Of a stretch of 64,000 nt of DNA, positions 18,025 through 37,446 are shown piece by piece. The notes beneath the pieces are model-generated. The model worked only from the letters and a program-made list of their open reading frames with translations, did no database searches and had not been told where the DNA came from. Each line of letters opens with the position of its first letter. The first letter of the stretch is position 1. Position numbers and translations under genes: made by a program. This stretch comes from Candidatus Eiseniibacteriota bacterium. Lineage in GTDB: Bacteria; Eisenbacteria; RBG-16-71-46; JABDJR01. The stretch is from the NCBI GenBank assembly GCA_963762255.1, contig CAVXKA010000001.1, positions 96,001 to 160,000 on the forward strand, given 5' to 3'.

Positions 18025-19307
18025 GGCTCTACTCCTTCTCGTCGCGGGCGGCCCGCGCCCGCGACCTGTCGCTGAAATTCCTCGCGGGCCGCGAGCGAGA
18101 TGCGATTGTAGGCGCAGTGGAAATCTGGAATCCGATGAGGATCGCGGTTGCCGGAGATGTGGCCGATCGCGATCGGGCAGACCGAGCAGTCGTGCAGGTA
18201 ACGACACTCGGCGCAAAGACCATAGGAAGAGTGTTTCTTCTCGCGCTGGTTGAACATGTCGATGGCCACGACCGCGTCGGGAAGCGAGGCGAGACGAGCC
18301 ATGAACCCTGCGGAGCCGATATTCCCCAGCCGGAGCGGCCCCAGCCGGGGCTGCAGAAGATCCCCTGGAAATTCCTGAAGTGACTCGAGCCACGTGGGGC
18401 AGCCTGCGACTTCACCGTCGGGGGCCACGGTGATTTCCTCGCCGTGGCCCGCGCCGCACATGGCGCGCCCGTTCGAATCCTGAACCCGCCCAGACCCGTT
18501 GCTTGCGTGGTTGCCGTTCCGCAGGGCCCGCGCCTTCGAGGAAGACCGGAACCCAGCGAAGGGGATTTCTCCGCTCACGCCGTGGAGTCCAACGCTCAGG
18601 TCGACAATCCGCTCGAACTGAACCCCGAGCTTCCGGTACCCCACCGCCGACCAGTCCGGGTTCGCTGCGATGACCGGAGAGACCGTGATCCTGCGCACGC
18701 CCCTGCCGGTGAGGTAGTGGATCGCATCGGCCAGGCCGCCGACCGCACTTGGCGTGAGGGTGATGCCGACGGTGAGACTCCGACGCAGGAACGCCGGCTG
18801 ATCCCGCCTCAACTCCTCGAGCCGGCGATCGAGCACGGCGAACGTGCCTCGGCCGCGAAGGGTCTGCGCGGTCGGCGTTCCATCGAAGCTCAGGAGCACC
18901 TCGAATCCAGCGCCGACAAGATACGAGGCCACTTCGGGACGCAGGAGGGTGCCGTTGGTGATGAGTGCCGGTCGGAACGACTTCCCATTCGATCGCACGC
19001 GTCGCGCGTACTCGACCGCGCGTCGGATCAACGGCAGCTCGAGCAACGGTTCACCGCCGGAGAAGAGCAGCCGCACGTCGTCCGCCCGCGAGGCGGCGGC
19101 CAGGTCCACCGCCTCGCGCAACGTCTCCCAGCTCATGCGGCGCGCCGGTTTGCGGTTCTGATAGCAGTACGAGCACCGCAAGTTGCACCGGCCCGTGAGC
19201 ACCAGATGCACCTTTCGCAGGTCCCTAGCCGGCGCGTTTGAGGACGCGAAACGAGGGCGGCGCTGACCGGCGCGAATGCCGGCTTCCGCTCCGCCGCGGC
19301 CTCTCAT
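18021..19307 (-). CDS. Radical SAM/SPASM-domain maturase
   Basis: CNLRCSYC, FSGGEPLL, TNGTLL, SFDG; SPASM cysteines CGAG...GCP...CAECRYLHDCSVCP...C; GAGGAG RBS. Confidence 0.92.
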   Translation of the reverse strand: MRGRGGAEAGIRAGQRRPRFASSNAPARDLRKVHLVLTGRCNLRCSYCYQNRKPARRMSWETLREAVDLAAASRADDVRLLFSGGEPLLELPLIRRAVEYARRVRSNGKSFRPALITNGTLLRPEVASYLVGAGFEVLLSFDGTPTAQTLRGRGTFAVLDRRLEELRRDQPAFLRRSLTVGITLTPSAVGGLADAIHYLTGRGVRRITVSPVIAANPDWSAVGYRKLGVQFERIVDLSVGLHGVSGEIPFAGFRSSSKARALRNGNHASNGSGRVQDSNGRAMCGAGHGEEITVAPDGEVAGCPTWLESLQEFPGDLLQPRLGPLRLGNIGSAGFMARLASLPDAVVAIDMFNQREKKHSSYGLCAECRYLHDCSVCPIAIGHISGNRDPHRIPDFHCAYNRISLAAREEFQRQVAGAGRPRREGVEP

Positions 19308-19314
19308 GCGCTCC

Positions 19315-19656
19315 TCAGGCCTCGGGCTCAGGCGGCGGACAGCCGTAGTCCAATCCCGGTCCACCGTCAGCAGGAGGAGGCGGTGGTGGACAGCCGTAGT
19401 CGAGAACCTGGGGCACGCCCCCGGGACTCTGCGCCGTGCTCGCGGGCAGCACGATCCTCATGGTGGGGGGGAGGAGCAGCAGGATCTCGCGCAAGGAGCG
19501 GCACCAGTTCTCGATCCCATAGAGCGCGTCCGTGATCTGCTTGATCGTCACCACGCCGCCCAGGGGCTTCAGTCGCTTGACGGCCTTCTTCTTGGTCGCC
19601 TTCTTCTTTGCGGTCTTCTTCACCACCTTCTTCTTTGTCGTCTTCTTCTTCGCCAT
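19315..19656 (-). CDS. Candidate RiPP precursor peptide (113 aa) with duplicated LDYGCPPP core
   Basis: AG-rich RBS; Lys-rich N-terminus, central helix, two LDYGCPPP repeats; ends 7 bp before the rSAM start. Confidence 0.75.
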   Translation of the reverse strand: MAKKKTTKKKVVKKTAKKKATKKKAVKRLKPLGGVVTIKQITDALYGIENWCRSLREILLLLPPTMRIVLPASTAQSPGGVPQVLDYGCPPPPPPADGGPGLDYGCPPPEPEA

Positions 19657-19708
19657 CGTTCTCTCCTCTCGCCGCGATGCGTCGCGGCACGGTTGCGCCG
19701 AAGGGCGC

Positions 19709-22384
19709 CTATCGGCGCTCGCTCGTCGCGTCGAGCACCCAGATATCTCCGTCCTTGGCCTCCCGGCACCAGACGATGAGCCGTCCGTCCCGGGTGACAT
19801 CGAAGAAACCGGCGGGATCCCTTCGCCCAAAGGCGATCTCGGGCTCGATCGATCGGATGGATCCGTCCTCCAGGGAAATCCGCTTCAGCGTCAGAGCCGG
19901 AGAGCCCCAGGTGCCGCTCACGAGGAGGACGCGACCTCCGGGCTCCCAACGAACGCGACTCGCGTGTGCGCCCTTCGTCACGGCGCGTGGAACCGCGTCG
20001 GGGGCGGCGGCAACGATGTAGACGTCGGCCGCCCCCTCAATGCTCTTCGTGTACGCGATCTGCGTACCGTCCGGCGACCAGGAAGGGGCTTGCGCGGCCG
20101 GCCCTGAGGCGGCTATCTCAAACGGGGCTCCCCGCGGTTCACCGTCGGTTACGCGCTCGATCCAGAGGCGAGCGCTTCCACCCCGTTCGGAGGAATATGC
20201 GATCTGCGTCCCGTCCGGGGACCATGCGGGATGGACGTCGGGTCCGGGCTCGCGGGTGAACTGCCGAGGCAACCCGCCCCCGATGGGGAGCATCCAAATG
20301 TCGCGCTCGTCGTCGAGGATCCGGTAGTAGGCGATCCACTTGCCGTCGGGCGAAACGACCGGATGCGATGCGGAGCCGGGGTGTTCTGTGAGCCGGCGCG
20401 GGTCTCCCTGCGGGCGCCCGTCGAGAAGGGGCTGAAGCCACAGGTCGAGCTGCGGTCCCCAGCGGTCGGAAACGAAGACGAGTCCATCTCCTGCAGGCGT
20501 GAATGCCGGCATCCAGTCGTGACGAAAGCCCGGCAAGACCGTATCGCGCCCGCTCGGCACGTCGCGCACGACCATGCGGTACTCGACTTCCTCGGTGCAG
20601 TACGCGAGCCGCGTGCCGGCGCCGGAGAGGCTGGGATGGGTCTCCGACGCGTTGCCCAGCGTGACTCGCTCGGGCTTCCCTCCCGATGCGGCGACTTGCC
20701 ATATAGCAAGATTGCCGCTGCGATAGGACGAAAAGTAGATCGTGCGACCGTCGGTCGACCACACGGGCTCCTGATCCACGTCGCTGCCGGACAGGATCCT
20801 CCGCGGCCGGCCACCGCTCGACGGCACCTGCCACAGCCCGTCAGAGGATGCGTAGCAAATGTGCTTCCCGTCCGGGGACCACGCCGGCTGTCGCTGACCC
20901 CACAGGCCGAAGCCGGGCCCGGTGAGATCAACCGCCTCGGCCGCATCGTCCATCGGAGCCACGAAGACCCGAGTCGATCCCGAGGAGTCCTCGCGCGCGA
21001 ATGCCAACCGCTTGCCGTCCGGCGAAGCAGCGGGATCGCTCGCGTTTTCTGCAACGAGTACGGCGGGACCACCCATCTGCCCGGTCTTCCAAACCCCGTC
21101 CGAGCCGAGACGGTCGGAGACGAACAGCACGGCACTGCCGTCGGGGAGCCACGTCGGGCTGAAGTCGGAGGCTGGATCGTTGGTCAGAGCAATGGGACTC
21201 CCGCCGTTCACCCCGATCGCGTACACCTCCAGGTTGCCCGATATATCCGAGACGTAGGTCACTCTCCCGCCGTCCGGCGAGAGTGCGGGTTCGCTCTCCC
21301 AAGCCTCGGAGCTGGTGACCTGGATGGGCTGCGCGCGTGCGAATGGTGGCAAAGCGGTCCGGCCGGGAATGATGCGCAAGAGGGTGAACGCCGCGACGAC
21401 AAGCAGAATGGCTCCGGCGGCGGCGAGGCCGATGCGCCGCAGTTGGTGCGGCCTCGGCATCGGGAACTGAGGGTGCGTCTCCGAGTACTCCCTGAATTCA
21501 AGCTGCTTGTGAACCGCTCGCAGGTCGGTGAGCAGATCGCGCGCGCTCTGGTAGCGCTCGTCCGGCCGCTTGGCCAGACACTTGCGGATGATCCGCTCCA
21601 ACTCATCCGGAACCTCGTAGGTGTGCTTCCCGATCGGTTCGGGCTCGCGGTTGAGGATCTCCCCCACCAGCTCGCCCTGGCTCGTGGAGTGGAAGGCGGG
21701 CGCCCCCGTGCACATTTCGTAGAGCACCGCACCCAGGGCGAAGATGTCGGTGCGGGCATCCGTCGGGCGGCCCAGAACCTGCTCCGGCGCCATGTAGCGC
21801 GGCGTTCCCACGACCGCTCCAGTCGAGGTCAGGCCAACGCTCTCGGTGGAAGTACTCGCGTCGGCCTCCCCCGTCATCAACGTACGCGCGAGCCCGAAAT
21901 CGGTGAGAAGCGCGCGACCGCTGGCGTCGATCAGGATGTTCTTGGGATTCACGTCGCGATGGATGACGCCGTGCTCGTGGGCGGCGTGCAACGCCGACGC
22001 CAGCTCGACCGCATGCGCCAGCACGGTCGTGCAGAGGAGCTTCCCGCCTTGTGCGAGACGGTCGCGCAGGCTCACTCCCTCGACGAGTTGGAAGACGATC
22101 CAGGGAACGCCGTTCTCTTCGAAGGCCTCGAGGACCGCGACGATGTTCGGGTGGGAGACGCGAGAGGCCGCCTTTCCTTCGCGCAGGAACCGGCGGCGAA
22201 GCTCCATCGAGCCAAGCAACTCCGGGAGAGGGCGCTTGAGAGCAACGTCCCGGCTGAGGTTCAAATCACGCGCCTGAAACACGATGCCCATACCGCCACG
22301 GCCGATTTCGTTCACGATTTCGTAGTGGCGGACGCGCTCGCCTGGGACAGGGCTATGCGGGAGTGCTTCCCGGTCGTCGGGCAT
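19709..22384 (-). CDS. Hanks-type Ser/Thr kinase with TM helix and TolB-like (PD40) beta-propeller
   Basis: GRGGMG, VALKR, HRDVNPKN, DFG, GTPRYMAPE; TM IGLAAAGAILLVVAAF; many P(A/T)WSPDG repeats. Confidence 0.93.
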   Translation of the reverse strand: MPDDREALPHSPVPGERVRHYEIVNEIGRGGMGIVFQARDLNLSRDVALKRPLPELLGSMELRRRFLREGKAASRVSHPNIVAVLEAFEENGVPWIVFQLVEGVSLRDRLAQGGKLLCTTVLAHAVELASALHAAHEHGVIHRDVNPKNILIDASGRALLTDFGLARTLMTGEADASTSTESVGLTSTGAVVGTPRYMAPEQVLGRPTDARTDIFALGAVLYEMCTGAPAFHSTSQGELVGEILNREPEPIGKHTYEVPDELERIIRKCLAKRPDERYQSARDLLTDLRAVHKQLEFREYSETHPQFPMPRPHQLRRIGLAAAGAILLVVAAFTLLRIIPGRTALPPFARAQPIQVTSSEAWESEPALSPDGGRVTYVSDISGNLEVYAIGVNGGSPIALTNDPASDFSPTWLPDGSAVLFVSDRLGSDGVWKTGQMGGPAVLVAENASDPAASPDGKRLAFAREDSSGSTRVFVAPMDDAAEAVDLTGPGFGLWGQRQPAWSPDGKHICYASSDGLWQVPSSGGRPRRILSGSDVDQEPVWSTDGRTIYFSSYRSGNLAIWQVAASGGKPERVTLGNASETHPSLSGAGTRLAYCTEEVEYRMVVRDVPSGRDTVLPGFRHDWMPAFTPAGDGLVFVSDRWGPQLDLWLQPLLDGRPQGDPRRLTEHPGSASHPVVSPDGKWIAYYRILDDERDIWMLPIGGGLPRQFTREPGPDVHPAWSPDGTQIAYSSERGGSARLWIERVTDGEPRGAPFEIAASGPAAQAPSWSPDGTQIAYTKSIEGAADVYIVAAAPDAVPRAVTKGAHASRVRWEPGGRVLLVSGTWGSPALTLKRISLEDGSIRSIEPEIAFGRRDPAGFFDVTRDGRLIVWCREAKDGDIWVLDATSERR

Positions 22385-22468: not shown

Positions 22469-22564
22469 GGGGGGGGCGGGAGGTCGGGCCGGGGGGCGGG
22501 GGCCGAGGGGCGGGTGCACGGGTCCGGGGGCGGAGGCGGGGGTCCGGGGGCGGGGGAGCCTGGG
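22469..22564 (+). repeat. G-rich low-complexity tract (G-quadruplex potential)
   Basis: More than ten runs of 3 or more G built from GGGGGCGG-like units. Confidence 0.6.
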
Positions 22565-23934: not shown

Positions 23935-23979
23935 GGGGGAGAGGATACATGATCTGCTGGCCGGCGGACCGAGTCGCCG

Positions 23980-25797
23980 TCACCCCATGCGAGTCCACTC
24001 CGCAAAGCCGACCTCTACGACACCACGCCACACCCGGGGGAGAAATTCTCGGGCTTGATCTTCCCCAGCCCACATGAACTCGACGTGCTCCGAGGACAGG
24101 ATGACTTGCCTCGATACACTGGTCCCCCAGAACAAGTGAACGTGATCTTCGACGAGCGGGACCCCCTCGATCGCGACGCCCGTTCGAAAAGAGCCGAGAA
24201 CCCTGATGCCCTCGTGCGGAATCCTGAGAGCGGTCTCTTCCTCAAGCTCCCTCTCTGCGGCCTCGATCGGGGCTTCGCCGGTCTCGAGTCCCCCACCGGG
24301 TAGCACCCACTTCCTGGTCTTGGCGCTTCTCAGGATGAGCACCTCGCGCTGCCCTGGGGCGTACAGAGTCCACTTCGCGCTCTCCCGCCTCCGCGATGGC
24401 GGTGAGGGCGGGCACCCACAGGCATTCAGTAGTTGTTGCAGAGCGGCCGCGGTGGCATGCCCGAGGTTCACATACCCCGTCTTCGAGTCGACGCTTGAAT
24501 CAGATGTGTCAACGATCAGGCTCGCGGTTGCAGATAGCTCCGCTAAGCCGTGCAACTGCTGCCGCCGTTCGGTGTCCCGCCCGTCGTCGAAATCGGCTCG
24601 CTCGCGCACTGCGTCCTCGCGCAGCTCTGCGTCGCGCCTGACCCAGAGCAGTTGGGCCGGGCGACCGAGGAAACGGACCAGAGTGTCGAGACCCCGCTGC
24701 GACTTCACCCCGTCAATCACCACCGGAGCATGTGCCGGCAAGTCCATGAACTCGGGCGACCGCAAGATTTCGCGGACCACGAACTCTGGATCCCTTGCTT
24801 CCGCCTTTTCCAACTGCGTCACCGCTTCCCACGTTACGCCGCCCATATCATCCAGACAGCTGCGCACAGCCCGCGACCAGGAGACGATGGGCCACCCGGT
24901 CAGTGCTTGGAGTCCCTTTCGGACCATGGTCTTTCCCGCCCCAGGCTTGCCGGCTAGAACTATCAGCGGTGCGGGGCGCTCCCTAGGTTGGAATAGGTCT
25001 CGATGAGAGCGGCTGGCCTGAGTGGGCCGGAGCACTAATGGACCCCGGAGTGGCCCCGCTACCAATTCTTCGAGCCCAAGGATCCCCTGCGGGGACCCCT
25101 CGTAGTCTGTTACCAGGGCAGCGACAACCCGATGTCCCAGCGACGCGAGAAGACCCCGGCATGCTCGCAGCGTTTCACCAGAGGCTGAATGCGCGTCGAC
25201 GAGGAGGACCCTCTGGCCACTCCTTCCCGTCCACCACGCATCCTCGATGGGTAGAGCCGAGTCCATGCCCAGTCTGGCCCTCGAGAAGACGAGGAAGCGC
25301 ATCGGCAACCGGAGGATCCGAGAGAGAAGAGCCCCCTCCGTGAGCCCGCGGGCCAGAATCACCCCGAGCACGTCCGCCGCAGGCGCCGCCTCGCGGCCGA
25401 TCCAAGCCGCCCACATGGCTAGGTCCACAGAGGAGAATCCAATGACGCCGCGTTTCTGAACCGTCGCGGGACCGGAGTGTAGATCCGAGGCACATGTCCA
25501 GTCGGATTGGAGTCGGTCAGCCAACCCCTGTACCCGCTTGCCCACTTCATCGGGCCCGCTCCACCGATCTTGTAGCGAAACGGTGAGCCTCATCTCCGCC
25601 TCCTGGCTGTGAGAGCCCGTCAAGAGAGATTGACCCAAGAGGTCGGCATAGATGCGAATCAGATGAAACAGCGCGGCCTCATCCGTACCGCCGTCACGGC
25701 AGCAACGAACCGACGCTCGGGTGAGCTTGATCAACCGCTCGAATCGGAGGCAGGCGTAGCGATGAAGAACGTCCCCCTCGTCCTCTCGTTCGGTCAC
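23980..25797 (-). CDS. Fusion of PRTase-like, P-loop nucleotide kinase and NUDIX hydrolase domains
   Basis: VLLVDAHSASGETL (degenerate PRPP loop), IVLAGKPGAGKT...VVIDGVK, GGGLETGEAPIEAAERELEEET (Nudix box); GTG overlaps the upstream stop. Confidence 0.75.
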   Translation of the reverse strand: MTEREDEGDVLHRYACLRFERLIKLTRASVRCCRDGGTDEAALFHLIRIYADLLGQSLLTGSHSQEAEMRLTVSLQDRWSGPDEVGKRVQGLADRLQSDWTCASDLHSGPATVQKRGVIGFSSVDLAMWAAWIGREAAPAADVLGVILARGLTEGALLSRILRLPMRFLVFSRARLGMDSALPIEDAWWTGRSGQRVLLVDAHSASGETLRACRGLLASLGHRVVAALVTDYEGSPQGILGLEELVAGPLRGPLVLRPTQASRSHRDLFQPRERPAPLIVLAGKPGAGKTMVRKGLQALTGWPIVSWSRAVRSCLDDMGGVTWEAVTQLEKAEARDPEFVVREILRSPEFMDLPAHAPVVIDGVKSQRGLDTLVRFLGRPAQLLWVRRDAELREDAVRERADFDDGRDTERRQQLHGLAELSATASLIVDTSDSSVDSKTGYVNLGHATAAALQQLLNACGCPPSPPSRRRESAKWTLYAPGQREVLILRSAKTRKWVLPGGGLETGEAPIEAAERELEEETALRIPHEGIRVLGSFRTGVAIEGVPLVEDHVHLFWGTSVSRQVILSSEHVEFMWAGEDQAREFLPRVWRGVVEVGFAEWTRMG

Positions 25798-27008
25798 TTT
25801 CCTGGTCCTCCGTCCCGTTCAAGAACCCGGGAAAAGAGGGAGAGATAGGCGTCGGTCTCCCGCTCGGGAGCGCAGGCGGATCGGAGGTGCCGCTCAGCGC
25901 GCTCGACCAGCCGCTGCGCCCTCTCCCGATCGTCAAGAAGGCTCCCGATAGCCGCGGCCAGCGCCATGGAGTCGTATCGAGGCACGATGAGCGCCGTTTC
26001 GCCGTGAAGGAGGATGTCGGAGAACACATCGGTCGCCACGACCGGCGTCGTGCTGGCCAGGGCCTCGAGGACCGCGTTGGCCATTCCGTCATCCAATGAA
26101 GGATACGCGAACACGTCCATTGCATGGTAGAAGTCGTAGACGTCCGAGTTCATCTCGAGGAGCCCGACCGTTCGTGTTTTCCGCTGGTACTCCGGGTGGT
26201 CTAACACCGGGCATAGGCTGCGATCGCTCAGGCTCCGCGGCCCTCCAACAACCAGCAGGTAGACATCGTCCCGCTCCCGCGCAAGGGACTGGAAAGCGTC
26301 GCTTAGGTACTGAAGTCCCTTCTTCGGGCGAAAGGTTCCTGTCCAACCCACGACCGCAGCGTTTTCAGGGATTCCGAGTTGATCGCGCACCTCCCGTCTG
26401 AGCGCCTTGCGCCGCAGTGCATCGTGGAGCGGAACTTCTCCAACTGCATTGCGGATGACGAGGAATCGCGAATCTGCCCCAAAGACCCACCTGGCGATCT
26501 CCCTTAGGTATTCGTTGACGAATGTGACGGAAGCAGACCGCTCCACCACCCATTGGGCGAGGGAGAAGGTCGGACCGAGGAAGAGCTCCGTCCCAACGTC
26601 TGCCCCACGGCCGCTGACCACATGAGGGACGCCAAGCCCATGGGCGATAGCGAGACCCGGGAATCCAGCGTCGACCAGGCCGAGCGAGAGGACGATGTCC
26701 CAGTCTCCTTGAGAACGGAGATACCCCAGCGATGTATCGACGAATTGCCGCTTTAGGAATGCCCGGGTCTCTGGTCCGGCCGAAGCGACGCCGGAAGCAA
26801 TAGGGCCGATGCGCACGACCTTGACCCCACTGCCATTGCCCCCCTCCTCCATCACCGCGGGAGGTTGGGTGAGTTGTTCCATCCTGTGGTAAGTGACGAC
26901 AATGGTAGGATGCCCGGCCCGAGTCAGATTGCCGGACAGGCGCGCAGCCGAGCGACCCACGCCCCCGATCTTCGGTGCGTACTCAGGCGTTACCAAGACG
27001 ATGCGCAT
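25794..27008 (-). CDS. GT4 (GT-B) glycosyltransferase
   Basis: EYAPKIGGV, FRPKKG, DVFAYPSLDDGMANAVLEALA. Confidence 0.9.
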   Translation of the reverse strand: MRIVLVTPEYAPKIGGVGRSAARLSGNLTRAGHPTIVVTYHRMEQLTQPPAVMEEGGNGSGVKVVRIGPIASGVASAGPETRAFLKRQFVDTSLGYLRSQGDWDIVLSLGLVDAGFPGLAIAHGLGVPHVVSGRGADVGTELFLGPTFSLAQWVVERSASVTFVNEYLREIARWVFGADSRFLVIRNAVGEVPLHDALRRKALRREVRDQLGIPENAAVVGWTGTFRPKKGLQYLSDAFQSLARERDDVYLLVVGGPRSLSDRSLCPVLDHPEYQRKTRTVGLLEMNSDVYDFYHAMDVFAYPSLDDGMANAVLEALASTTPVVATDVFSDILLHGETALIVPRYDSMALAAAIGSLLDDRERAQRLVERAERHLRSACAPERETDAYLSLFSRVLERDGGPGK

Positions 27009-27900
27009 TCGCTTCCCTCTCCAGCAGGTCGGCCGTCATGTTCAAGTCCATCGGCCGTTTCTCCAGGGCAGGTGCTATAAGGCACAAGAGATGATCGACA
27101 AGGGTCTTCGAGACACAAATGCCCGAGAGCCTTCGGTCGAGATCACACCATTGCGACCGGTATGCGCTCCAGGCTTCCGTCGACTTGCTGACCTGGTTGT
27201 CGAAAGCATCGCTGCCGGTCAGCAGCCAAAAGAGGGTGGTCCCCAGTCCAAACGCGTCTGTGCCGACACCAAACCTCGTGCCCAAGGTCATGAGCTGCTC
27301 CGGCGCCTTGAAACGGTACTTGCCGCTGCCCAGCTTTCCTTCGGCTATTGTCCCTGCTTGGATGGGCTTGGCAAGGGGTCGAGAACTCCCAAAATCAATC
27401 AGGACTGGGGCCTCGAGATTGCCACCACGCAGGAGAACGTTGTGAGGCTTCACATCGAGGTGTAAGAAGCCGCTTGCATGAATGTGGGCAACCGCACGGG
27501 CGATCGCCGCCGCGCACCGTAACGTTGCACCAATCGGGAGGTCCCTCGCCGCTCCCTGCACCTTCAATGAAGACTCCGGGAGCAGCTCGAGGAGAAGGAA
27601 CTCCCCCCCAGGGTCAGCGTCAAGAAGCCGCACTACTCCTGGATGCCCCAGGTGCCGAAGCAGTTTCGCCTCCGCACGAAGGAGCTTTCGCAGAACGAAA
27701 CTGGAGAGATCACCACTCGACTGCCGGGGCAGCTTGACGGCCACCGCCGACTCCTGGCGATCCCGTGCTTCCACAACGATAGAACGACCACCCTTGCCGA
27801 GGACTCGCACCGGGCGGTAGCGCTCACTGAGGCTTGCCGGCCAGACGTGAGGAGAGAAGCTCTTGAGTTCGTCCGTAGATCCGACCTGCCAATCTCGCAT
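26983..27900 (-). CDS. Stand-alone cytoplasmic Ser/Thr protein kinase
   Basis: GKGGRS, VAVK, HLDVKPHN, DFG, APE; GGAG RBS. Confidence 0.88.
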   Translation of the reverse strand: MRDWQVGSTDELKSFSPHVWPASLSERYRPVRVLGKGGRSIVVEARDRQESAVAVKLPRQSSGDLSSFVLRKLLRAEAKLLRHLGHPGVVRLLDADPGGEFLLLELLPESSLKVQGAARDLPIGATLRCAAAIARAVAHIHASGFLHLDVKPHNVLLRGGNLEAPVLIDFGSSRPLAKPIQAGTIAEGKLGSGKYRFKAPEQLMTLGTRFGVGTDAFGLGTTLFWLLTGSDAFDNQVSKSTEAWSAYRSQWCDLDRRLSGICVSKTLVDHLLCLIAPALEKRPMDLNMTADLLEREANAHRLGNA

Positions 27901-28386
27901 GGAGGTATCTCACTCTTCCTTGGAATCAAAGTCACGGTCATTATCACATTCGTATTGTGACGCCCTCGAAAGATTTCTGGACAGGTCATGAGCGGCGTAC
28001 GGTCTTCCTCCGAGACCCAAAGGGGGACGCTGTGACGTATGAAGCGGTCGAAGTTCAGTTAGGGGCAGGCGGCCTACGCCTTGCGCCAAGCGGAGGCGGC
28101 CGAATTCCGGATCAGGCCCGTCGGAAGATCGGGGAATGTTCACCGGGGCTAGATTAGTTGACGTCGGTGTTTCCGTATGCACGTTAAGCGTGGCACTGGC
28201 CGGATCAAACGTCCATCCCCAAAGGGGGAGATATCTACGAACGGGAGAGAACTTCGACTCAGTCTACGTTTCATAGTTGACATCACGGAGGTTCGGAAGT
28301 ATTGATGTATTGTGCGGTTAGGATGTCTTCCCCAGGCTCGACCGCCCGAGCCTCGATCGCTCCTTCGCCGCTGACCGGAGGCCGCC

Positions 28387-29850
28387 ATGCGGATCTTTGC
28401 GTTCACACGAGCCGCGCTGCCCGCGACTCTCGCCCTCTGGCTTGTCGCCACTCTGATGATTGCCAGCGTGGTGTCCGGCATCGCCCTCGCCCAGACCACC
28501 CAGGGCCCTCTCGACATGGTCCTCATCATCGACACGTCGAAGACCATGAGGGGCGCCGGCGGTGCGGCGAACATCTTTCCCCGGGTTCAGGACGTCTCGC
28601 GGGGCTTTCTCTCCGACCTGCGCCTTGAGGACACTTTCACTCTCATAGCCTTCGACAGCGACAGCCGGGTGGAGCCCACGGTCCTCCTCGCTTCCGAGGA
28701 CGAGCGACAGAAGCTCTCGGACAAGATCACCGCGCTCCGGCCGGAGGGCGACTGGACCTACACGGCGGACGCGCTGCTCAACGGACTCGCGGAGGCTGAC
28801 CGCCTGGCGAAGCAGTACCCGACCCACACCCAGGTCGTGCTCATCCTCACCGATGGCCTCAATGATCCCCCAAAGGGCGCCCGGGCTAGCGCCCCATCTT
28901 TGAAGGCAGTCACCGAGCCGTATGCCGGCAGGCCTTGGTACGTATACCAGGTTCAGCTCGGACCCGAAGTGGATGAGGCGCTGAGCAAAGCGCTCAAGTC
29001 CTTCACCAACGGCATAACAATTCACGATCGTGGCGGCGCAAACTTGGATGCACTCCGGAAACAGATCCAAGAGAGGCGGCCGCCAAGCAATCCGGTGGAG
29101 CTGCGGCTGGAACCCGACAAGCTCAAGATCAAGGTTCGCGAGATCGGCAAGTCCGAGAGCCAGATTGCGAAGCTCATCCTCCCAGAGGGACTCCCTGCAG
29201 GAGCCTTAAGTGTCACGATCGCCGATCCCAGTGCATTTCCGATGGATATCGACATCACTCCCGAGATCGTGGCTCTGCTGGACGGCGCCGTGAGCTTGCG
29301 CGTCAACGCCACCGCCCGTTCCAAGACCGCCAACGGCACTCATTCCGGGGCGCTTCGTCTCGAAGCCGCACCCGTCCAGGGAATCGCGCTCGCTCCAACC
29401 GAGGTGCCGCTCGATATCGAGACGAGCCTCATTCCCCCGCTCTGGCCGAAGATCCTCGCCGCCATCCTTGCCGCTGCCGTCTTGGCTAGCGTGGTCTTCT
29501 TCGCCATCAAGCGCCTCCGCGAGCGCTGCCTCGACGGCCAGCTCGAGTACTGGCCGCAGGGGCGGCCGCAGGAGCGCAAGAGCATCTCCGATCTTCGCCC
29601 CTTCAAGGGACGCGCCGTTCTCGGTTCGACACAGATCCCCCTATCAGCGGAGCTGGTTGGGGCGGCGACGCTCACCCCGCGCAAGGTCGCGGGGCAATAC
29701 CATGTGGTCGTGACCGCAGCCGAGGGGAAGAACCTGACCACGGGCGGCCGCCGCCAGACCGAGATCGTTCTCTACGACCGGGACACCTTCCTTCTAGAGG
29801 GATGGGAGTTCCACTACCGAGGCGCGGTAGGTGTGCGCCCCCGCGCCTGA
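28387..29850 (+). CDS. Membrane-anchored vWA-domain protein with C-terminal FHA-like cytoplasmic region
   Basis: Signal peptide; MIDAS-like DTSKT...T...LTDG; TM ILAAILAAAVLASVVFFAI; LYDRDTFLLEGWEFHY resembles an FHA C-terminus (inference). Confidence 0.8.
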   Translation: MRIFAFTRAALPATLALWLVATLMIASVVSGIALAQTTQGPLDMVLIIDTSKTMRGAGGAANIFPRVQDVSRGFLSDLRLEDTFTLIAFDSDSRVEPTVLLASEDERQKLSDKITALRPEGDWTYTADALLNGLAEADRLAKQYPTHTQVVLILTDGLNDPPKGARASAPSLKAVTEPYAGRPWYVYQVQLGPEVDEALSKALKSFTNGITIHDRGGANLDALRKQIQERRPPSNPVELRLEPDKLKIKVREIGKSESQIAKLILPEGLPAGALSVTIADPSAFPMDIDITPEIVALLDGAVSLRVNATARSKTANGTHSGALRLEAAPVQGIALAPTEVPLDIETSLIPPLWPKILAAILAAAVLASVVFFAIKRLRERCLDGQLEYWPQGRPQERKSISDLRPFKGRAVLGSTQIPLSAELVGAATLTPRKVAGQYHVVVTAAEGKNLTTGGRRQTEIVLYDRDTFLLEGWEFHYRGAVGVRPRA

Positions 29851-29947
29851 CGACTGCAACCGGGCAACCGAAGCACATCGGATCGATCCGCACATAGCCT
29901 GAGGGCCGCCCAACGAAGCTGCCCCGCAGCACGGGAGAGAAACCACC

Positions 29948-32900
29948 ATGTCCGAATCCCGAATCGACTTGGCCGAAAACATGATGCCGAGCGGCGAAGC
30001 GACCGAACTCCTCCCCGACCTCCAGTTGTTCGCGGGCGATGTGGAGGTAGGCGAGGGGGCGAGCTTCAGCCCCACTCTGCTGATCGGTCTAGGAGGGACC
30101 GGCGCCGAGGTGTTGCTGCGGGTCAAGCGCATGCTCAGGGAGCGAGGCGCCTCGGGGCACCTGAGCCGCTTCGTCTTCATCGACGCCGACCAGCGCACCT
30201 TCAGCAAGATGCCCGGCTTGCCCCCCGTTGAGCGGGACGAGGCCTGCTTGATCGGGATGAACCAAGCGGTCCGGCTGCTCAACAACCCCGAATTGCACCC
30301 TCACGTCTGGTCCCGATTCCCGAAGTCGGAGCTCAAGGAGGGGTACATCCGCCAGCTCGCACTCGGAGAAGGAGCGGGCCAGATCCGGGCCGCCGGGGCG
30401 CTCGCGCTGCTCCTCGACTACGCGAACGTGCGCACCAGGGTCGAGGCCGCCTACAACAGCCTCGTCCAGCTCTCCAGCCGGCTGCAGGCGAAGATGGCGG
30501 AGGCTCACGGAGCGGCGGTGAGCAGCGATGTCGTCATCTACGTGGTCGGCTCCCTCGCCGGCGGCACCGGGTCGGGATGCGCAATGGACGTCAGCCTCAT
30601 GGCCCGCGACATCTGCCGGGCGCACTACCCTCGCCTCGTGGGAGTCTTCGCCCTGCCCGACGCGTTCGATGAGAAGGTGCAGAACGACGCCACCCAGAAG
30701 GACCGAATCCGCGCCAACTGCTACGCCGCGCTCAAGGAACTTCAGTTCGTCCTCGACGCGGACGCGGACGGCCGCAAGGACATGGTCTTCGATTACGGGA
30801 ACGGCACGACGCTGACTTTGCCCGCCGGAGACAAGGTCTTCTCCCTCGCCTACCTCATCGACAACAGCAACGCCGCCGGAGGGCTGAGCAAGATCGAAGA
30901 CCTCTACGAGCTGATGGCCCGGACCGTGTATCAGGACGTGGGCTCGCGCCTCGGCGCGCACCGCCGCTCCTTTGACCGCAATTGCGGCGTCATCACCGGG
31001 GTGGATTTGTGCCCGAAGAGCGGGCTCCCCCGTCCGTTCAGCTCGGCCGCGACGTCGGCGCTGGTCTACCCCAGCCTGCGTGTCGGCCTCTACTGCACCT
31101 ATCGCACCCTGCACTCCGTGATCCAAGACACGTTCCTGGTCGATCGCCTTCCCGCGGAGAAGGTCGGCGATCTTGTGAACGGGTTCCTCGCCCGGGCGAA
31201 TCTGGACGACCGTGGGTCGAACAACCAACTCATCGAGAGCCTGCTCACCGATCCGACCCGCAACGAGGTCACATCCGCCGCCACCCACGGGCTTCCCCTC
31301 ACGTGGGGCGCGAACTTCAATACCGGCGCATTCGCCGCCAAGATCGAAGCGACCCGGCAGTCCTTCGCCAGCGTGGATCTGCCAAAGATCTCCCACGACA
31401 TCGTCAACAATAACCTCCAGGTGCGCCTCGGCTACGCAAGCGATCCGCCCTCCGATCCGCTGCGCAAGGCGGTCGAGGAACTGGCGGTGACCACTGCCAC
31501 CGATCATGGCGTACCCACCACGCTCGCCGTATTGCAGGATCTCGAAGAGGTCTGCAAGGCGATGAAGACCGAGTTGGAGGCGGAAACCACCAACTGGGCG
31601 TCAGTGGCGCGTCAGAACACACTGCAGCGGTTCAATGAGCGACGCAGCCAACTCGCCGGTCTCAAAGTCTGGCAGCGGGCGGCCAAGACCGACCAAAAGC
31701 TCAAGCGCCTACTTATCGAGGAGTTCAATTACTACGTGGACCAGGAGGCGTGGGCGCTGGCCCGCCCTGCCTGCATCCGGATCCTCGACACCGTGATCGG
31801 CCGGGTGCGCGACGTCGCGGGTGCATGGTCCGCGCTGGGTGGCGAATTGCGAGAGGTGGACCGCGAACTGATTGCGGGGGCGCGCCGGTTGGAGGCTCAG
31901 GGGGGGCGGCCGATGCGCGACTTCGTGGTCGAAATCGAAGTCACGCGCCCCAATTACGAGATCCGCTACTACCAGGCCAACGCCATCAAGCAGACCGACG
32001 CCCTCAAGCTCCTCCACGACAGGATGGGGGGAGCCCGTGCCCTCTATCTTGGGATCCTCGGCCTCAAGCGCGCGGAGATCACCCAGCGGCTCGGCCACGT
32101 CATCCACGACCACTACGCCGCCCCGCTGTCCCGCGTGAACCTGATCGAGTTCGTGCGGGACAAGGCCAACAAGGGCGAGGTAGAGGAAGGCCTCGACACG
32201 AAGCTGGAGAGCTTGTTCGAGATGTGCCAGCCGTTCTGGCATGCTCAACCGTTGATGGCCGGTATGTCATTCCCCGAGTTCGTGGCCGCCAGTGTCCATC
32301 CGGTGCTCAAGGAGGACAACTCCCTCGCCTGGCCGCCGGAGATGGATAAGTGGATCAAGAAGCACGGCGGCGATCAGGGGCGAAAGTTCAGCCTCATCCC
32401 AAGCGACGTTCCCTACGAGATCGTGCTCAGCCGCCGCACCCACGGCGCCCGGGCGTTCTATCTTGCCCAGGCGGCGGATTGGAAGAAACTCCATGAGCGG
32501 CAGCGGGAGACGGCACGCGGCAAGTACCCGCTGGAGATCGGGGCCCAGTTCAAGGACGCCCCCGATCTGTTTCCCGACGACCAGGGGCTGCGATGGATGT
32601 TCACGCTCGGGATCGCGTTTGGGTTCATCGTGGTGAGGGGAGACTATTACTACTTCAATCTGGAAGAAGGCGCCGACGGCTCGCTCATCGCGCTGTACGA
32701 GGCGCGAGGGCAGGTGCTCGACACGCTGGAGGGAGTGGGGCCACTCCCCGCCAAGGTGGGCGTACTCAACTATCGCCGGGGCAAGGGAAGGCCGAAGGCT
32801 AGCCTGCTGCTCGGGCAGGGCCGGGAGAAGGCATTCAAGGGATTCGTCAAGGACGAGCACTTCCAGGATCTTCTCAACCGGGCCTGGAGGGAGTACCACC

Positions 32901-33052
32901 AGGACGCGGGCACGGCCGCGGTCAAGGCTATGCTCACCGAATACGTGGCGCGGGTGCTCACCCCGGAATCGGAAGGGAATACTCCGCTGGCGGTGCTGAT
33001 CACGAAGGAGAAGCAGGCACTGGAGCGCTCCCTGCTTGCGCTCGGCGCCTGA
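29948..33052 (+). CDS. Tubulin/FtsZ-like (Tubulin_2-type) GTPase domain protein
   Basis: LLIGLGGTG, GAGQIRAAG, VVGSLAGGTGSG, ANCYAALKEL; long helical C-terminus. Confidence 0.85.
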   Translation: MSESRIDLAENMMPSGEATELLPDLQLFAGDVEVGEGASFSPTLLIGLGGTGAEVLLRVKRMLRERGASGHLSRFVFIDADQRTFSKMPGLPPVERDEACLIGMNQAVRLLNNPELHPHVWSRFPKSELKEGYIRQLALGEGAGQIRAAGALALLLDYANVRTRVEAAYNSLVQLSSRLQAKMAEAHGAAVSSDVVIYVVGSLAGGTGSGCAMDVSLMARDICRAHYPRLVGVFALPDAFDEKVQNDATQKDRIRANCYAALKELQFVLDADADGRKDMVFDYGNGTTLTLPAGDKVFSLAYLIDNSNAAGGLSKIEDLYELMARTVYQDVGSRLGAHRRSFDRNCGVITGVDLCPKSGLPRPFSSAATSALVYPSLRVGLYCTYRTLHSVIQDTFLVDRLPAEKVGDLVNGFLARANLDDRGSNNQLIESLLTDPTRNEVTSAATHGLPLTWGANFNTGAFAAKIEATRQSFASVDLPKISHDIVNNNLQVRLGYASDPPSDPLRKAVEELAVTTATDHGVPTTLAVLQDLEEVCKAMKTELEAETTNWASVARQNTLQRFNERRSQLAGLKVWQRAAKTDQKLKRLLIEEFNYYVDQEAWALARPACIRILDTVIGRVRDVAGAWSALGGELREVDRELIAGARRLEAQGGRPMRDFVVEIEVTRPNYEIRYYQANAIKQTDALKLLHDRMGGARALYLGILGLKRAEITQRLGHVIHDHYAAPLSRVNLIEFVRDKANKGEVEEGLDTKLESLFEMCQPFWHAQPLMAGMSFPEFVAASVHPVLKEDNSLAWPPEMDKWIKKHGGDQGRKFSLIPSDVPYEIVLSRRTHGARAFYLAQAADWKKLHERQRETARGKYPLEIGAQFKDAPDLFPDDQGLRWMFTLGIAFGFIVVRGDYYYFNLEEGADGSLIALYEARGQVLDTLEGVGPLPAKVGVLNYRRGKGRPKASLLLGQGREKAFKGFVKDEHFQDLLNRAWREYHQDAGTAAVKAMLTEYVARVLTPESEGNTPLAVLITKEKQALERSLLALGA

Positions 33053-33063
33053 GCTGAGTCGGC

Positions 33064-35163
33064 ATGGAAACCTACCCCGGCGCGGATACCCCTTCGGTCA
33101 CCTTGAGCGTGCTCGCGGGCGTGGGGGCCCGCGGCGAGCGGATCACTCACTTGCTCGAGGATCTTGTCGCTTCGCTCCCTGAGCCGCTGAAGGCGGCCAT
33201 CCGGGTCGTCCACGGCGCGGACGCCGCAGCGCTGCTGCAGCAGGTGCGAGCGGCGCGCGCGTCCCTTACCGATCAGGTGAACACCGAGCGCATCCTCGCC
33301 GGGAAGTGGCAGGTGGAGGGACGCGATACCGGCGGGGTGCGCGTCCAGCTCTGCATCGCCGCCGCCGAAGGAGAGGACGCGGGGCTCGATCAGACGGTTC
33401 GCACTCTGCAGAACGACAACGGCTCCGACACAATCCGCACGATCACAATCGCGACGAATCCGGTGGACGTCACGCCGGCGGGCGAGGCGAGAGGCGTGCG
33501 CCGCTACTTCGTCGGCCCGCGCAACGCCGCCGGTGAGACAACCGGGGATGATGCGATCATCGGAAGTGTCGCGGGAGCGCTGCTGCTGTTCGCGTTGCCT
33601 GGATCACGACCCGGGCCGGACCCCACCGAGGACCGCGCGGCCACGTTCGGCCTCTCCGCTTTTCATGGGGTGATCGGAGCCTCCCGCCGCCAGCTTGCGC
33701 GCCATCTGGCCGCCGCCCTACTCGCGATCCACGGTCGCCCCGCCTCGGAAGTGGACCAGCAGCGGTTTCAGGGGCAGGACCTTGCGGAGTTCGTGCAAGA
33801 TCATTCGCTGGAGACCTTGCTGCCGCGGCTCTTCGATCCTCGGCTGTTCGACACAGGCCGCACGGAGCCGATCCCGGCGGTGCCCCAGATCGACGACAAC
33901 CGCTTAGTGGAAATCACCCTCGATCGTGGGGCGGTGGCGCTCAAGCTCGCGCCGGGAGAGGAGACGCTCTGGTCCGAGCAGCTCGTGCGGTACTCGCGCA
34001 CGCTGGAAATGACGGTGGCGGTGCGGTGGCGGCGCCAGATGGAGTCTGCGTTCCGCAACCTCGCGAGGACGGTGCCGGACGCGTTGGTTGAGCGCGTCAG
34101 GACGTACGTTGCGCGGACGGTGAACGGCCACGCCCTCATGCGAGACGCCCTCGAGCGCGTCCGAACCGATCACGAGCACGAATTGCTGTCCTTGCCCGAT
34201 CCATCCGCCCGGCTGGAGCCGGCGTTGCGCGAACTGGACCACGCTGTGGCCGCGCGCCCAGGGGCGCTCGACCTGTGGCTGCGGACCGCGCTGTGGGTGC
34301 TGCCGGCGGCGGGAGCGGCGGCACTCGTCCTGACCCGGTTAATGGATGATGACCGGGAGAAATGGTTCGCTCTGGGGGTGGCGGTACTCGTGGCGGCGGC
34401 AGGTGTACTTGGAGTCGTCCAGCGGCTGGACGCGGCACGCCAGCGCATCCTCAAGAGCCGCGACCGCGCGGTGGCCATCATCCTCGACCGTCAGGAGGCG
34501 ATTCTCTCGCAGAATGCGGTCGGGTACGTGCAGGACTTGGTCGCCCTCCTGCGTCGCGGTCGGGAGAGTGCCCTGGAGTTCCTCGCCAAGGACGAGGAGG
34601 CGATCACGGTGGCGCGCAGGACTCTAGATGAGGCGCTGGCCCGCCCGGTAGAGGGGCCGGTGACTTTCGAGCCTGTCCTTCGCACTCGCAAGGAGTATGA
34701 GGAGGCGCACCGCCTGCTGAACGCGAACACAGATCAGTTGCTGGAGGGGCTTGGAGGAGAGGATGGACTCTCCCCGCAAGCGGTGCAGATCGCACACAAC
34801 ATGGCGCTGCCGGAGTGGCTGACGACATGGTGCGACGCGCGAATCGTCGAGGGCAGGGCTGTCCGCCCAATCCCGTTCTCGTCGGCCTGGGAGATCCGCT
34901 TGAAGGGTCGCCCCGAGGGCAACGTGCACGACGAGCTCGCCGCCTTGCAGCGGCGGGCGGAGCCACTGGGAAGCGTGGAGATGTCCTGCAAGCAGATGGC
35001 GATGCGGGTGGTTCCTGCGGGCGTACCGACGGAGGGGATGGAACCGGCCACTGAAGAGGTGGGCGGATTGCAGGAAGTGGTCGAGGTGCCATCCCCGCAC
35101 GCACTCCCCCTCTTTGTCTGCTGGAAAGGCGCGCTCCTGCGCCCGCATGAGGGGACGCGATGA
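33064..35163 (+). CDS. Hypothetical membrane protein, possibly degenerate tubulin-like partner
   Basis: 699 aa; LAGVGARG at the N-terminus, no GGTGSG; two adjacent hydrophobic helices flanked by coiled-coil-like segments. Confidence 0.6.
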   Translation: METYPGADTPSVTLSVLAGVGARGERITHLLEDLVASLPEPLKAAIRVVHGADAAALLQQVRAARASLTDQVNTERILAGKWQVEGRDTGGVRVQLCIAAAEGEDAGLDQTVRTLQNDNGSDTIRTITIATNPVDVTPAGEARGVRRYFVGPRNAAGETTGDDAIIGSVAGALLLFALPGSRPGPDPTEDRAATFGLSAFHGVIGASRRQLARHLAAALLAIHGRPASEVDQQRFQGQDLAEFVQDHSLETLLPRLFDPRLFDTGRTEPIPAVPQIDDNRLVEITLDRGAVALKLAPGEETLWSEQLVRYSRTLEMTVAVRWRRQMESAFRNLARTVPDALVERVRTYVARTVNGHALMRDALERVRTDHEHELLSLPDPSARLEPALRELDHAVAARPGALDLWLRTALWVLPAAGAAALVLTRLMDDDREKWFALGVAVLVAAAGVLGVVQRLDAARQRILKSRDRAVAIILDRQEAILSQNAVGYVQDLVALLRRGRESALEFLAKDEEAITVARRTLDEALARPVEGPVTFEPVLRTRKEYEEAHRLLNANTDQLLEGLGGEDGLSPQAVQIAHNMALPEWLTTWCDARIVEGRAVRPIPFSSAWEIRLKGRPEGNVHDELAALQRRAEPLGSVEMSCKQMAMRVVPAGVPTEGMEPATEEVGGLQEVVEVPSPHALPLFVCWKGALLRPHEGTR

Positions 35164-36389: not shown

Positions 36390-37283
36390 TCACACAGGTG
36401 GAATCTGCGGCCTCTCGTAGGCGATATCGTAGACAAGAGCGGCCGGTTCCTTCCCGGCCGGGGCCGGAAGTGTTGTGATGTACTGGAACTTGACACCGTT
36501 GGTCAATGTGACGGCGGCAGCGGCTATGCTCGCGGTCTTGAGACCACCCGTGACGTTGATCAAGATACCGGAATCATGAGTGCCATACTTTGAACGTTCG
36601 TGCTGAATCAGATCCTCGATCGCGCTCTTCACCTCCCCAAACAGTTCGAACTCGACCGCGCGTGTGGCTTTGATGAGCTCGACCCCCGGAAGAAATCGCC
36701 CGAGCAGCTTCACGCAGAGATCCAATTCGCCCCAAGATCCCGGATCCCCACCAAGACGATCGGCTGACCCCACGAGGTAGATTCGCCGGACGACTCCCTG
36801 GTGATGACTGACGGCTCTCAGAAGCTGGAGCCAGTTCCATCTCTTGTCGGCAGATTCCAGAGCAACCCTGGGGATTGACGCATCCAGCGAACGGAATTCC
36901 AGCGGGATGCGGCGCGATCCATCGATGAGGAGTTCTCCGTCGCCGCTCTCCGGCACATCCTTGAGCAAGAGAGGCTTCTGCGGGGACACCAGGAGGATAA
37001 GCACCTTGTGGGGCCATACGTGAAGCGGGGACAGACTCTTCGGCAGCACAAAGGAACTCCGCATCAGGTACAGCATCACAATGAATGCAAGAAACACCAG
37101 GCAGAGCGCGATAGCTAGCAGTACGCGCACCGCGGGGCTGTCCAGGAATGGCCACCATGTGGCGAAGGGGATGTTCCCAATGGCATTTGCTGCCAAGCTT
37201 CCCGAGAGGACGACGCCCACGGCGAGCAGAATCGCCCTCTTGGGGATTACCCTCAATTCGCGGAATCTGGCCCCTACTTCCAT
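36390..37283 (-). CDS. Transmembrane CARF-domain effector (Cam1-like architecture)
   Basis: Two N-terminal hydrophobic helices; KVLILLVS and INVTGGLKTASIAA CARF motifs; no nuclease domain; last gene of the type III operon. Confidence 0.72.
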   Translation of the reverse strand: MEVGARFRELRVIPKRAILLAVGVVLSGSLAANAIGNIPFATWWPFLDSPAVRVLLAIALCLVFLAFIVMLYLMRSSFVLPKSLSPLHVWPHKVLILLVSPQKPLLLKDVPESGDGELLIDGSRRIPLEFRSLDASIPRVALESADKRWNWLQLLRAVSHHQGVVRRIYLVGSADRLGGDPGSWGELDLCVKLLGRFLPGVELIKATRAVEFELFGEVKSAIEDLIQHERSKYGTHDSGILINVTGGLKTASIAAAAVTLTNGVKFQYITTLPAPAGKEPAALVYDIAYERPQIPPV

Positions 37284-37446
37284 GCTGGTTTTCCCCCGAC
37301 CGGATCCTACCAACACTCCTCCACGAGCGGTAATTCTGTCACGACCTTACGGGCATTCAGGCTTTCATCTTCGCGGTGCCGCGACTGCGACACATCTATG
37401 GCGGGAGCGAGATCATCACCTCACTCACGTCCGGTCTCGAGTGCCC

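Follow-up and report, generated by a model that had tools for sequence, protein, structure and literature searches.

The three-gene cassette and its closest described relatives

In tubercidin biosynthesis, a phosphoribosyltransferase (PRTase) that depends on 5-phosphoribosyl-1-pyrophosphate (PRPP), TubE, and a Nudix protein, TubG, make up the scaffold of the pathway (PMC6112128), and the accessory genes of tubercidin-type pathways are patchy in distribution. Here we describe a cassette of three open reading frames (ORFs) in a 64,000-nucleotide stretch of contig CAVXKA010000001.1 (the window) from Candidatus Eiseniibacteriota bacterium, an uncultured soil bacterium. The cassette is placed just upstream of the essential gene ffh and encodes, all in the same orientation on the minus strand, a Hanks-type Ser/Thr protein kinase, a GT4 glycosyltransferase and a 605-residue fusion protein with a four-helix bundle, a PRTase-like domain, a P-loop kinase and a NUDIX hydrolase domain. 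Like the tubercidin-type pathways, the cassette would bring a PRTase fold and a Nudix domain to one phosphoribosyl scaffold, and it is patchy in distribution. In this comparison, which is one of description and not of sequence, it differs in lacking the second acidic residue of the PRPP loop and all base-synthesis genes, in fusing its domains with a kinase, and in pairing them with a GT4 and a protein kinase.

Other described proteins resemble single parts of the cassette. The UPF0200/AdkA-like proteins (Sulfolobus SSO1041; structures 3h0k and 3lw7) align with the middle domain of the fusion over ~160 residues at E 4e-12, in an alignment that takes in Walker A, D-G-V-[KR]-S and an Arg-rich lid. 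These are stand-alone archaeal proteins of ~180 residues, whereas the domain of the fusion lies between PRTase-like and NUDIX domains; a literature search on UPF0200, SSO1041 and AdkA-like proteins returned nothing. PurR of B. subtilis and other non-catalytic ligand sensors with a PRTase fold (7rmw, 1p4a, 1o57), in which the PRPP site serves ligand sensing, are like the fusion in carrying this fold behind an unrelated N-terminal domain. In PurR that domain is a DNA-binding winged helix, whereas the fusion begins with a four-helix bundle and ends in enzymes. PurR retains the D-D pair of the PRPP loop. The small-molecule GT4s, namely sucrose-phosphate synthase (6kih), MshA (3c4q), BshA (5d00, 2jjm) and TreT (2x6q), share solubility and the GT-B fold with the GT4 of the cassette (profile E 4e-19 to 9e-11), but the likeness lies mainly in the donor-binding half and the motif reads D-x7-E rather than E-x7-E. 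Finally, defence kinases catalogued in PADLOC (PD-T4-6 and mad6 of MADS) have a catalytic domain like that of the trio kinase (E 2.6e-30 and 5.7e-36), but the match is restricted to the generic kinase core, and the trio contains no other MADS component.

The three genes are tightly packed. The kinase gene (26983..27900, minus strand, 305 residues) overlaps the GT4 gene (25794..27008, minus strand, 404 residues) by 26 nucleotides (nt), and the GT4 gene overlaps the fusion gene (23980..25797, minus strand) by 4 nt (GTGA), which confirms the overlapping operon described in an earlier note made from the DNA letters alone. The start codon of the GT4, and hence the 26-nt overlap, is confirmed by an N-terminus, MRI[VL]LVTPE, that six homologues share in an alignment. 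The GC content at third codon positions (GC3) is 0.667 in the kinase gene, 0.709 in the GT4 gene and 0.715 in the fusion gene, against 0.907 in ffh, in agreement with the earlier impression that the trio is less GC-biased than ffh. By a hydrophobicity check, all three proteins lack hydrophobic segments of the membrane type. Because trio GC3 (0.67-0.72) is below that of the flanking host genes (0.80-0.93), because the fusion and a close GT4 were not found in relatives, and because same-family genomes differ upstream of ffh, the trio looks like a foreign, horizontally acquired unit, cytoplasmic and tightly coupled, as judged from sequence.

The fusion protein, its altered PRPP loop and its glycosyltransferase partner

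The fusion is an undescribed, very rare architecture. Its AlphaFold model (pLDDT 82.7, pTM 0.78) opens with a four-helix bundle (residues 1-105; 25483..25797, minus strand), with pLDDT of 87-96 over most of its length. The structural matches of the bundle are generic helical bundles only (Z 8-9.6), and R18, E20 and R27 are nearly invariant. Residues ~120-260 (25018..25440, minus strand) adopt a type I PRTase fold according to Foldseek, VIA and profile alignment. Foldseek matches include APRT (6fsp, E 3.2e-5), 1vch, PurR and HGXPRT, and VIA Z scores are 10-12.3 over model residues ~109-256 (4paw 12.3, 4z1o 11.9, 2dy0 11.5); the fold matched is the PRTase core, a five-stranded parallel sheet with helices on its flanks. 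Pfam PF00156 (Pribosyltran) gave no match for the fusion at E<=0.01, and thus none at its gathering threshold. A stand-alone homologue, P0012, scores 29.0 bits with this family, above the cut-off of 26.3, and another, P0013, scores 24.0, below it.

The third part, a P-loop kinase (residues ~275-460; 24418..24975, minus strand), is related to the UPF0200/AdkA-like proteins. The family profile matched 3lw7 and 3h0k at E 3.7e-12 and 3.9e-12, with query columns 275-435 covering chain residues 2-162 of ~179. Its Walker A reads G283-K-P-G-A-G-K289-T290, and the motifs D-G-x-K and R-x-x-F-D-D-x-x-D-x-x-R are invariant in the family. Pfam P-loop matches on the fusion are weak and fall at residues 265-381; JGI/IMG labels the homologues 'dephospho-CoA kinase'. 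The C-terminal NUDIX domain (residues ~470-605; 23980..24390, minus strand) matches Pfam PF00293 at 50.5 bits against a cut-off of 21.1 (E 2.7e-13, residues 480-582), and its top Foldseek matches are Ap4A and Ap6A hydrolases, NudI, RppH and MutT. The Nudix box, G502-x5-E508-x7-R516-E517-L-E-E520-E521-T-A523-L, keeps all catalytic R-E..E-E residues; its lone deviation is A523 at the penultimate Gly, which is Gly in three of the four aligned NUDIX-bearing homologues and Arg in P0004. The domain calls of the earlier note thus held, by Pfam for the Ser/Thr kinase, GT4 and NUDIX and by fold and profile for the PRTase. So did the fusion of PRTase, kinase and NUDIX, by Pfam, profile and fold, with the bundle found in addition.

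Across the trio, catalytic motifs are intact in the Ser/Thr kinase, the P-loop and the Nudix box, and the GT4 carries D-x7-E; the exception is the PRPP loop. In the fusion this loop reads L199-V-D201-A-H203-S-A-S-G207-E-T209. D201, H203, G207 and T209 are invariant in all nine aligned family members, and VDAH is identical in all five sequences of a second alignment that includes stand-alone homologues of the N-terminal domains. The degenerate VDAH in place of VDD, to which the earlier note had drawn attention, is therefore a fixed feature of the aligned homologues. The profile aligns the family consensus vLlVDAHratGEtl to VVVVDDVATTGTS of OPRT and VLVVDDVADTGETL of GpT-2, and also to APRT. D-A-H is thereby set against the canonical D-D-V: the first Asp is kept, Ala stands in for the second, and the position after it is a fixed His. 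The loop that binds the 5-phosphate (S/T-G-E-T) is kept, but the two adjacent acidic residues of a PRPP loop are not present. Because the ribose-binding acidic pair reads D-A-H, classical PRPP transfer is doubtful. As far as the motif can tell, the altered loop fits a phosphoribosyl ligand held as substrate for the fused kinase, or a changed chemistry, and not ordinary PRPP transfer.

The single Asp extends beyond the fusion family. Two-domain proteins of ~345 residues (P0019, P0069, P0135, P0016, P0018) combine a PRTase-like domain with a UPF0200-like kinase, and hhalign relates the fusion to them with a probability of 100% (E 6.9e-43) over 411 columns and both domains. They carry a single-Asp loop, IVD[RK]..TGLT, and the motifs D-G-[IV]-K and R-x-D-F-D-D. 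The two groups are thus homologous in both domains and have the single-Asp loop in common, but all of the ~345-residue proteins lack NUDIX and all but P0018 lack the bundle. Since the single Asp is common to this wider superfamily, the altered loop is an old conserved trait that goes beyond local decay. The ~345-residue superfamily itself seems to be undescribed. P0019 corresponds to PIR21930.1, annotated as hypothetical in a metagenome-assembled genome at NCBI, and occurs on 23 contigs. No match to the superfamily was found in two genomes reached through loci L037 and L038, nor in 401 sampled genomes of the phylum of genome G206, and its alignment gave 0 confirmed matches against viral contigs.

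A HMMER search over 1.84 billion representatives returned the query and seven other proteins at E<=1e-30; at E<=1e-10 the total was 19. Every relative of the fusion derives from a metagenome assembly (JGI/IMG, Logan, ENA), and the contigs measure 0.9-14.8 kb. Eight relatives were aligned with the query: NUDIX is present in four (P0003, P0005, P0006 and the N-truncated P0004) and absent in the other four (P0007, P0008, P0009, P0011); on this alignment the domain is optional within the family. Bundle-plus-PRTase-like proteins also occur stand-alone. Searches of other collections recovered little: in 40 relatives and 205 other genomes of the phylum, the fusion gave Nudix-box matches only, and its alignment gave 0 confirmed among 19 pattern matches in species-genome contigs, 10 in JGI metagenome contigs and 15 in viral contigs. 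A tblastn search of plasmid and phage collections found no match, and a word-index search, which scored the 8,000 candidates sharing most words, found only the fusion itself.

The GT4 matches Pfam over both halves above cut-off, with PF13579 (Glyco_trans_4_4) at the N-terminus (41.5 bits) and PF00534 (Glycos_transf_1) at the C-terminus (92 bits); Glyco_trans_1_4 matches as well, and the fold and family are those of retaining GT-B enzymes. A profile search placed it closest, among solved chains, to sucrose-phosphate synthase Tll1590, MshA, BshA, PimB', TarM and TreT. The usual E-x7-E is read as D307-x7-E315, so that the first Glu is replaced by Asp, and this form is invariant in all seven subfamily members. 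Six homologues, all from metagenomes, are 47-53% identical, and the next tier falls to 31-34%, by which measure the GT4 belongs to a rare subfamily of its own. No match above 34% identity was found in 40 relatives. The GT4 alignment recovered two distant loci (23-25% identity) in species-genome contigs, 0 confirmed in viral contigs, and six loci in metagenome contigs. In the last, the longer tblastn segments are ~25-34% identical and the remaining matches are N-terminal stretches of 38-41 residues at 45-54%, while one match of 54% identity (locus L033) spans only 41 residues. A tblastn search of these six loci found no fusion or kinase.

Contig sizes point to a link between the GT4 and the fusion. 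A GT4 homologue, P0154 (51% identity), and a fusion homologue, P0009, both come from Logan and from a contig of 8,396 bp; GT4 P0174, which falls within P0158's 90% cluster, and P0003, a full-length fusion, both come from JGI/IMG and Logan and from a contig of 14,834 bp. We compared 13 fusion-family with 12 GT4-subfamily contig sizes (the longest per protein), spread over ~0.9-94 kb, and by our estimate the chance of two exact size coincidences with the same sources is well under 1%. Because such coincidences are unlikely, we infer that at least three loci, this one included, have the GT4 next to the fusion, and that the two form a conserved pair. The earlier note had named failure of the three genes to co-occur as grounds for rejecting its view; on these two metagenome contigs, co-occurrence would hold for the GT4 with the fusion. 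Its other ground was a setting of the homologues in polysaccharide or metabolic loci, and they may well lie in such a place. A complex prediction for the GT4 with fusion residues 1-460 scored 0.00 and 0.29 (mark 0.32) and is no evidence either way.

The first gene encodes a kinase domain only. It matches Pfam Pkinase (PF00069) at 88 bits against a cut-off of 31.7 (E 8.7e-25), and a profile search placed PknB, PknA and StkP closest among solved structures. The residues of a Hanks-type kinase are all present: the VAIK Lys (K56, in VAVK), the alpha-C Glu (E77), the catalytic D..K..N (H147-L-D149...K151-P-H-N154), DFG (D169-F-G) and APE (A199-P-E). The Arg of HRD is replaced by Leu (HLD), making it a non-RD kinase. 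Similar kinases abound in the phylum, where 37 of 41 genomes have a counterpart at E<=1e-15, with identities of at most 38%. In the word-index search the kinase returned only itself at E<=1e-25, a weak negative, because scoring was limited to the 8,000 candidates with most words in common. Since no near homologue on record was found, the place of the kinase in the module is backed by this genome only, through the 26-nt overlap and the common low GC3.

Proposed chemistry and alternative functions

We tentatively favour the reading that the trio is a horizontally acquired, fully cytoplasmic cassette that makes and trims a glycosylated small molecule of phosphoribosyl or nucleotide type, with the GT4 and the multidomain protein (bundle, PRTase-like domain, P-loop kinase, optional NUDIX) as its conserved core. 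Its biological role might be in conflict, in signalling or as a secondary-metabolite pathway. The PRTase-like domain would bind a ligand bearing a 5-phosphoribosyl group through the intact 5-phosphate loop, and the UPF0200/CoaE-like kinase would then phosphorylate the bound ligand, either from nucleoside monophosphate to nucleoside diphosphate (NDP) or on a ribose hydroxyl. The GT4 would transfer a hexose from an NDP-sugar to this ligand; most of its nearest solved relatives act on acceptors that are small and phosphorylated or acidic. NUDIX, where present, could split a diphosphate link, so that the product is released or recycled, and the non-RD Hanks kinase, encoded first, may regulate one of the enzymes by phosphorylation. 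The ESM Atlas, with best scores of 0.76-0.84, offered PRTase/adenylate-kinase and UPRTase/uridine-kinase fusions of salvage, as leads only. The earlier note had proposed a phosphorylation-gated system that makes or destroys a modified or glycosylated nucleotide, and that interpretation is partly supported.

Several observations weigh against this reading. Every family member lacks the second Asp of the PRPP loop, as does the wider superfamily (VD[RKG]), and the PRTase-like domain may be catalytically inactive altogether. The likeness of the GT4 to small-molecule GT4s is mostly confined to the donor-binding C-terminal half, and the protein falls below every NCBIfam cut-off, including those of BshA (TIGR03999; 77.5 against 273.7) and MshA (TIGR03449; 56.8 against 462.5). 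No homologue has a known substrate, product or activity, the cassette holds no nucleotidyltransferase or sugar-nucleotide gene, and the word-index search found no near homologue of the kinase. The co-occurrence of GT4 and fusion is read from identical contig sizes, not from DNA. It covers two of the nine GT4-subfamily entries of at least 350 residues; the other seven, on contigs between 2,350 and 69,889 bp, lack a size match in a fusion search that lists one representative per 50% cluster.

A role in anti-phage defence, by abortive infection, is possible but would be our second choice. Here the kinase would sense infection, and the GT4 and fusion would deplete or modify nucleotides or make a toxic glycosylated nucleotide. 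The location invites the idea: a VWA/Tubulin_2 module and, beyond it at ~36.4-56 kb, a type III CRISPR-Cas locus with its two arrays occupy the same variable, lower-GC3 region of 33 kb as the trio, which bears out the earlier view that the trio lies at the edge of a defence island. The distribution is also rare and patchy. Kinases, glycosyltransferases and Nudix domains are among the effectors of vWA-centred conflict systems, and PRTases are predicted as signal-making enzymes of the Ter system (PMC7159879 and PMC7824862, respectively). Yet the VWA-tubulin module occurs without the trio in another genome (G043), and searches found no homologue of the fusion in phage, plasmid or viral collections, nor of the GT4 in viral contigs. 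The mad6 and PD-T4-6 matches of the kinase in PADLOC span the generic catalytic domain only, in a phylum rich in such kinases. The kinase matches many kinase-domain models of PADLOC-DB v2 (mad6, PD-T4-6, MkoA), and its score with the NCBIfam MAD6 equivalog (NF047741) is 72 bits against a cut-off of 460. PADLOC-DB v2 gave no GT4 match, and for the fusion only PDC-S07, at 4e-6 over 38 residues of the Nudix box; the GT4 scored 17.6 bits with the Pfam GT4-conflict family, below the cut-off of 26. The trio thus matches no named system, as the earlier note had also concluded, and nothing relevant was found in the literature on such a domain combination in defence. A bolder version, which we consider unlikely, is a conflict system in which the kinase gates the GT4 and fusion to produce a glycosylated, extra-phosphorylated ribonucleotide as toxin or alarm signal in phage infection, with VDAH marking a new type of PRTase-fold reaction.

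The same loop could instead belong to a sensor. In this rather unlikely alternative, the PRTase-like domain would bind PRPP or (p)ppGpp, as PurR does, and control the kinase and NUDIX as a regulator of nucleotide pools or stress. It would fit a pattern common to the family and the wider superfamily, in which the phosphate loop is retained but the second catalytic Asp is invariably absent, and also the stand-alone bundle-plus-PRTase-like proteins. The fold matches also include PurR with ppGpp (7rmw), PurR with cPRPP (1p4a), a ppGpp-bound Neisseria protein (5vog) and PAP39, a PRPP-synthetase-associated protein. However, a sensor leaves the conserved pairing with a dedicated GT4 subfamily unexplained, a DNA-binding domain is absent, and the His conserved just past the lost Asp speaks for altered chemistry more than for simple decay.

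An envelope-glycan, glycolipid or protein-glycosylation locus, in which the kinase and fusion supply or regulate the GT4, is improbable. In its favour, the GT4 homologues are annotated in JGI/IMG as 'glycosyltransferase involved in cell wall biosynthesis', two of the solved relatives are PimB' and TarM, and the weak best NCBIfam matches include TuaC, EpsE and PEP-CTERM-associated GT4s. A GT4 combined with a kinase-fold enzyme is also reminiscent of WaaG and WaaP in lipopolysaccharide core synthesis. But those NCBIfam matches are all far below their cut-offs, and the Kdo/WaaP match of the kinase reaches 19.9 bits against 88 for Pkinase. The cassette also lacks a flippase, polymerase, polyprenyl-phosphate transferase, sugar-nucleotide gene and membrane protein, and its neighbours are ffh, the VWA-tubulin module and CRISPR-Cas. 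Least probable is a single seven-gene conflict system in which the trio serves as effectors of the divergent VWA/Tubulin_2/699-residue/transglutaminase-like operon: the two units diverge around a common 486-bp region, and vWA-centred systems with kinase, glycosyltransferase and Nudix effectors have been reported (PMC7159879), but G043 keeps the four-gene module from VWA to transglutaminase with no trio match in 20 kb at E<=1e-5, and GC3 is 0.79-0.86 in that module against 0.67-0.72 in the trio.

Returning to the small-molecule cassette, a catalytic PRTase-like domain with a conserved His for the second Asp would imply a new chemistry on a phosphoribosyl substrate, while a sensor would imply a new coupling of PRPP or alarmone levels to nucleotide enzymes. 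As it stands the cassette is an annotated puzzle, with a defence role possible only, and as a compact three-gene cassette of a soil bacterium it is tractable for expression and assay.

Gene layout and genomic surroundings

An RBS-like (ribosome-binding-site-like) sequence, AAGGAAGAG, precedes the ATG of the kinase gene. Between the trio and the divergently oriented VWA gene lies an intergenic region of 486 bp (27901..28386); it has a lower GC content, 0.42-0.68 in 50-nt windows, and is presumed to be the promoter region. No sigma-70-like site was reported in this region, and a sigma-54-like search pattern had no match in 27850-28450. At gathering scores Rfam returned no family anywhere in the window, and within 27700-28500 it found nothing even at E<=1; it therefore gives no riboswitch clue to the ligand. 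A minus-strand ORF at 28149-28574 (141 residues) was considered as a fourth gene; it has no family match, overlaps the start of the VWA gene and is probably not a gene. At the other end, 45 nt (23935..23979, minus strand, the strand of ffh) separate the stop codon of the fusion gene from the start of ffh. Because no minus-strand terminator-like site was reported within 23935-23979, read-through from the fusion gene into ffh is possible. The window contains no tRNA, and a search for flanking direct repeats, the mark of an integrated element, found none.

Three same-family genomes retain ffh (73-81% identity), but its upstream side there holds other genes with host-like high GC3. A conserved gene found here at 57090-58349 lies 33 kb from ffh, and in genome G004 12 kb from it. 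The variable, lower-GC3 region of 33 kb consists of the trio, the four-gene VWA unit and the type III CRISPR-Cas locus. In the sole other genome of the genus (G001), the corresponding contig (C24) ends inside ffh, with the upstream region unassembled.

The VWA/Tubulin_2 unit (28387-36356, plus strand) lies between the trio and the CRISPR-Cas locus. It encodes a membrane-anchored VWA protein of 487 residues, a Tubulin_2 protein (PF13809) of 1,034, a protein of 699 without family match, and one of 398 with a weak transglutaminase-like match. In general outline it resembles the vWA/tubulin themes of conflict systems (PMC7159879). The unit was found in one of 205 other genomes of the phylum, G043, where the gene order recurs and the Tubulin_2 proteins are 34% identical over ~980 residues. 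Because the kinase, GT4 and fusion have no match in the 20 kb fetched from this genome at the E value given above, the VWA-tubulin unit is a separate module.

The type III CRISPR-Cas locus (36390-56000) includes an RT-Cas1 fusion (49590-51731), a Cas10-like protein (43871-45508), several RAMP proteins, and Cas6- and Csm6-like proteins. One array (45763-49200) has 47 repeats of ~36 nt with a period of ~73; the other (54919-55929) has 13 repeats, among them a repeat variant ending in CGCAAG, and one double-length gap at 55556-55664. No CRISPR repeat family was reported by Rfam.

Among sequencing runs, one soil metagenome (X1) contained 0.08 of the words, and no RNA data set was listed as containing them. 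At 80% likeness, this run yielded 151-nt contigs on the GT4 and kinase genes, with 4-5 differences and a depth of 2-3, which is a near relative at low abundance.

On the other side of ffh, a stretch of minus-strand genes (16321-22384) includes an 891-residue Ser/Thr kinase with eight PD40 beta-propeller repeats, and overlapping ORFs for a radical-SAM protein (18021-19364) and an M64-like peptidase (16321-18393). These genes had no match at E<=1e-10 in 20-kb stretches from the three same-family genomes. Between the start of the kinase-PD40 gene (22384) and the stop codon of ffh (22618), positions 22472-22556 hold three copies of a G-rich 31-nt unit (GGGGGCGGG...).

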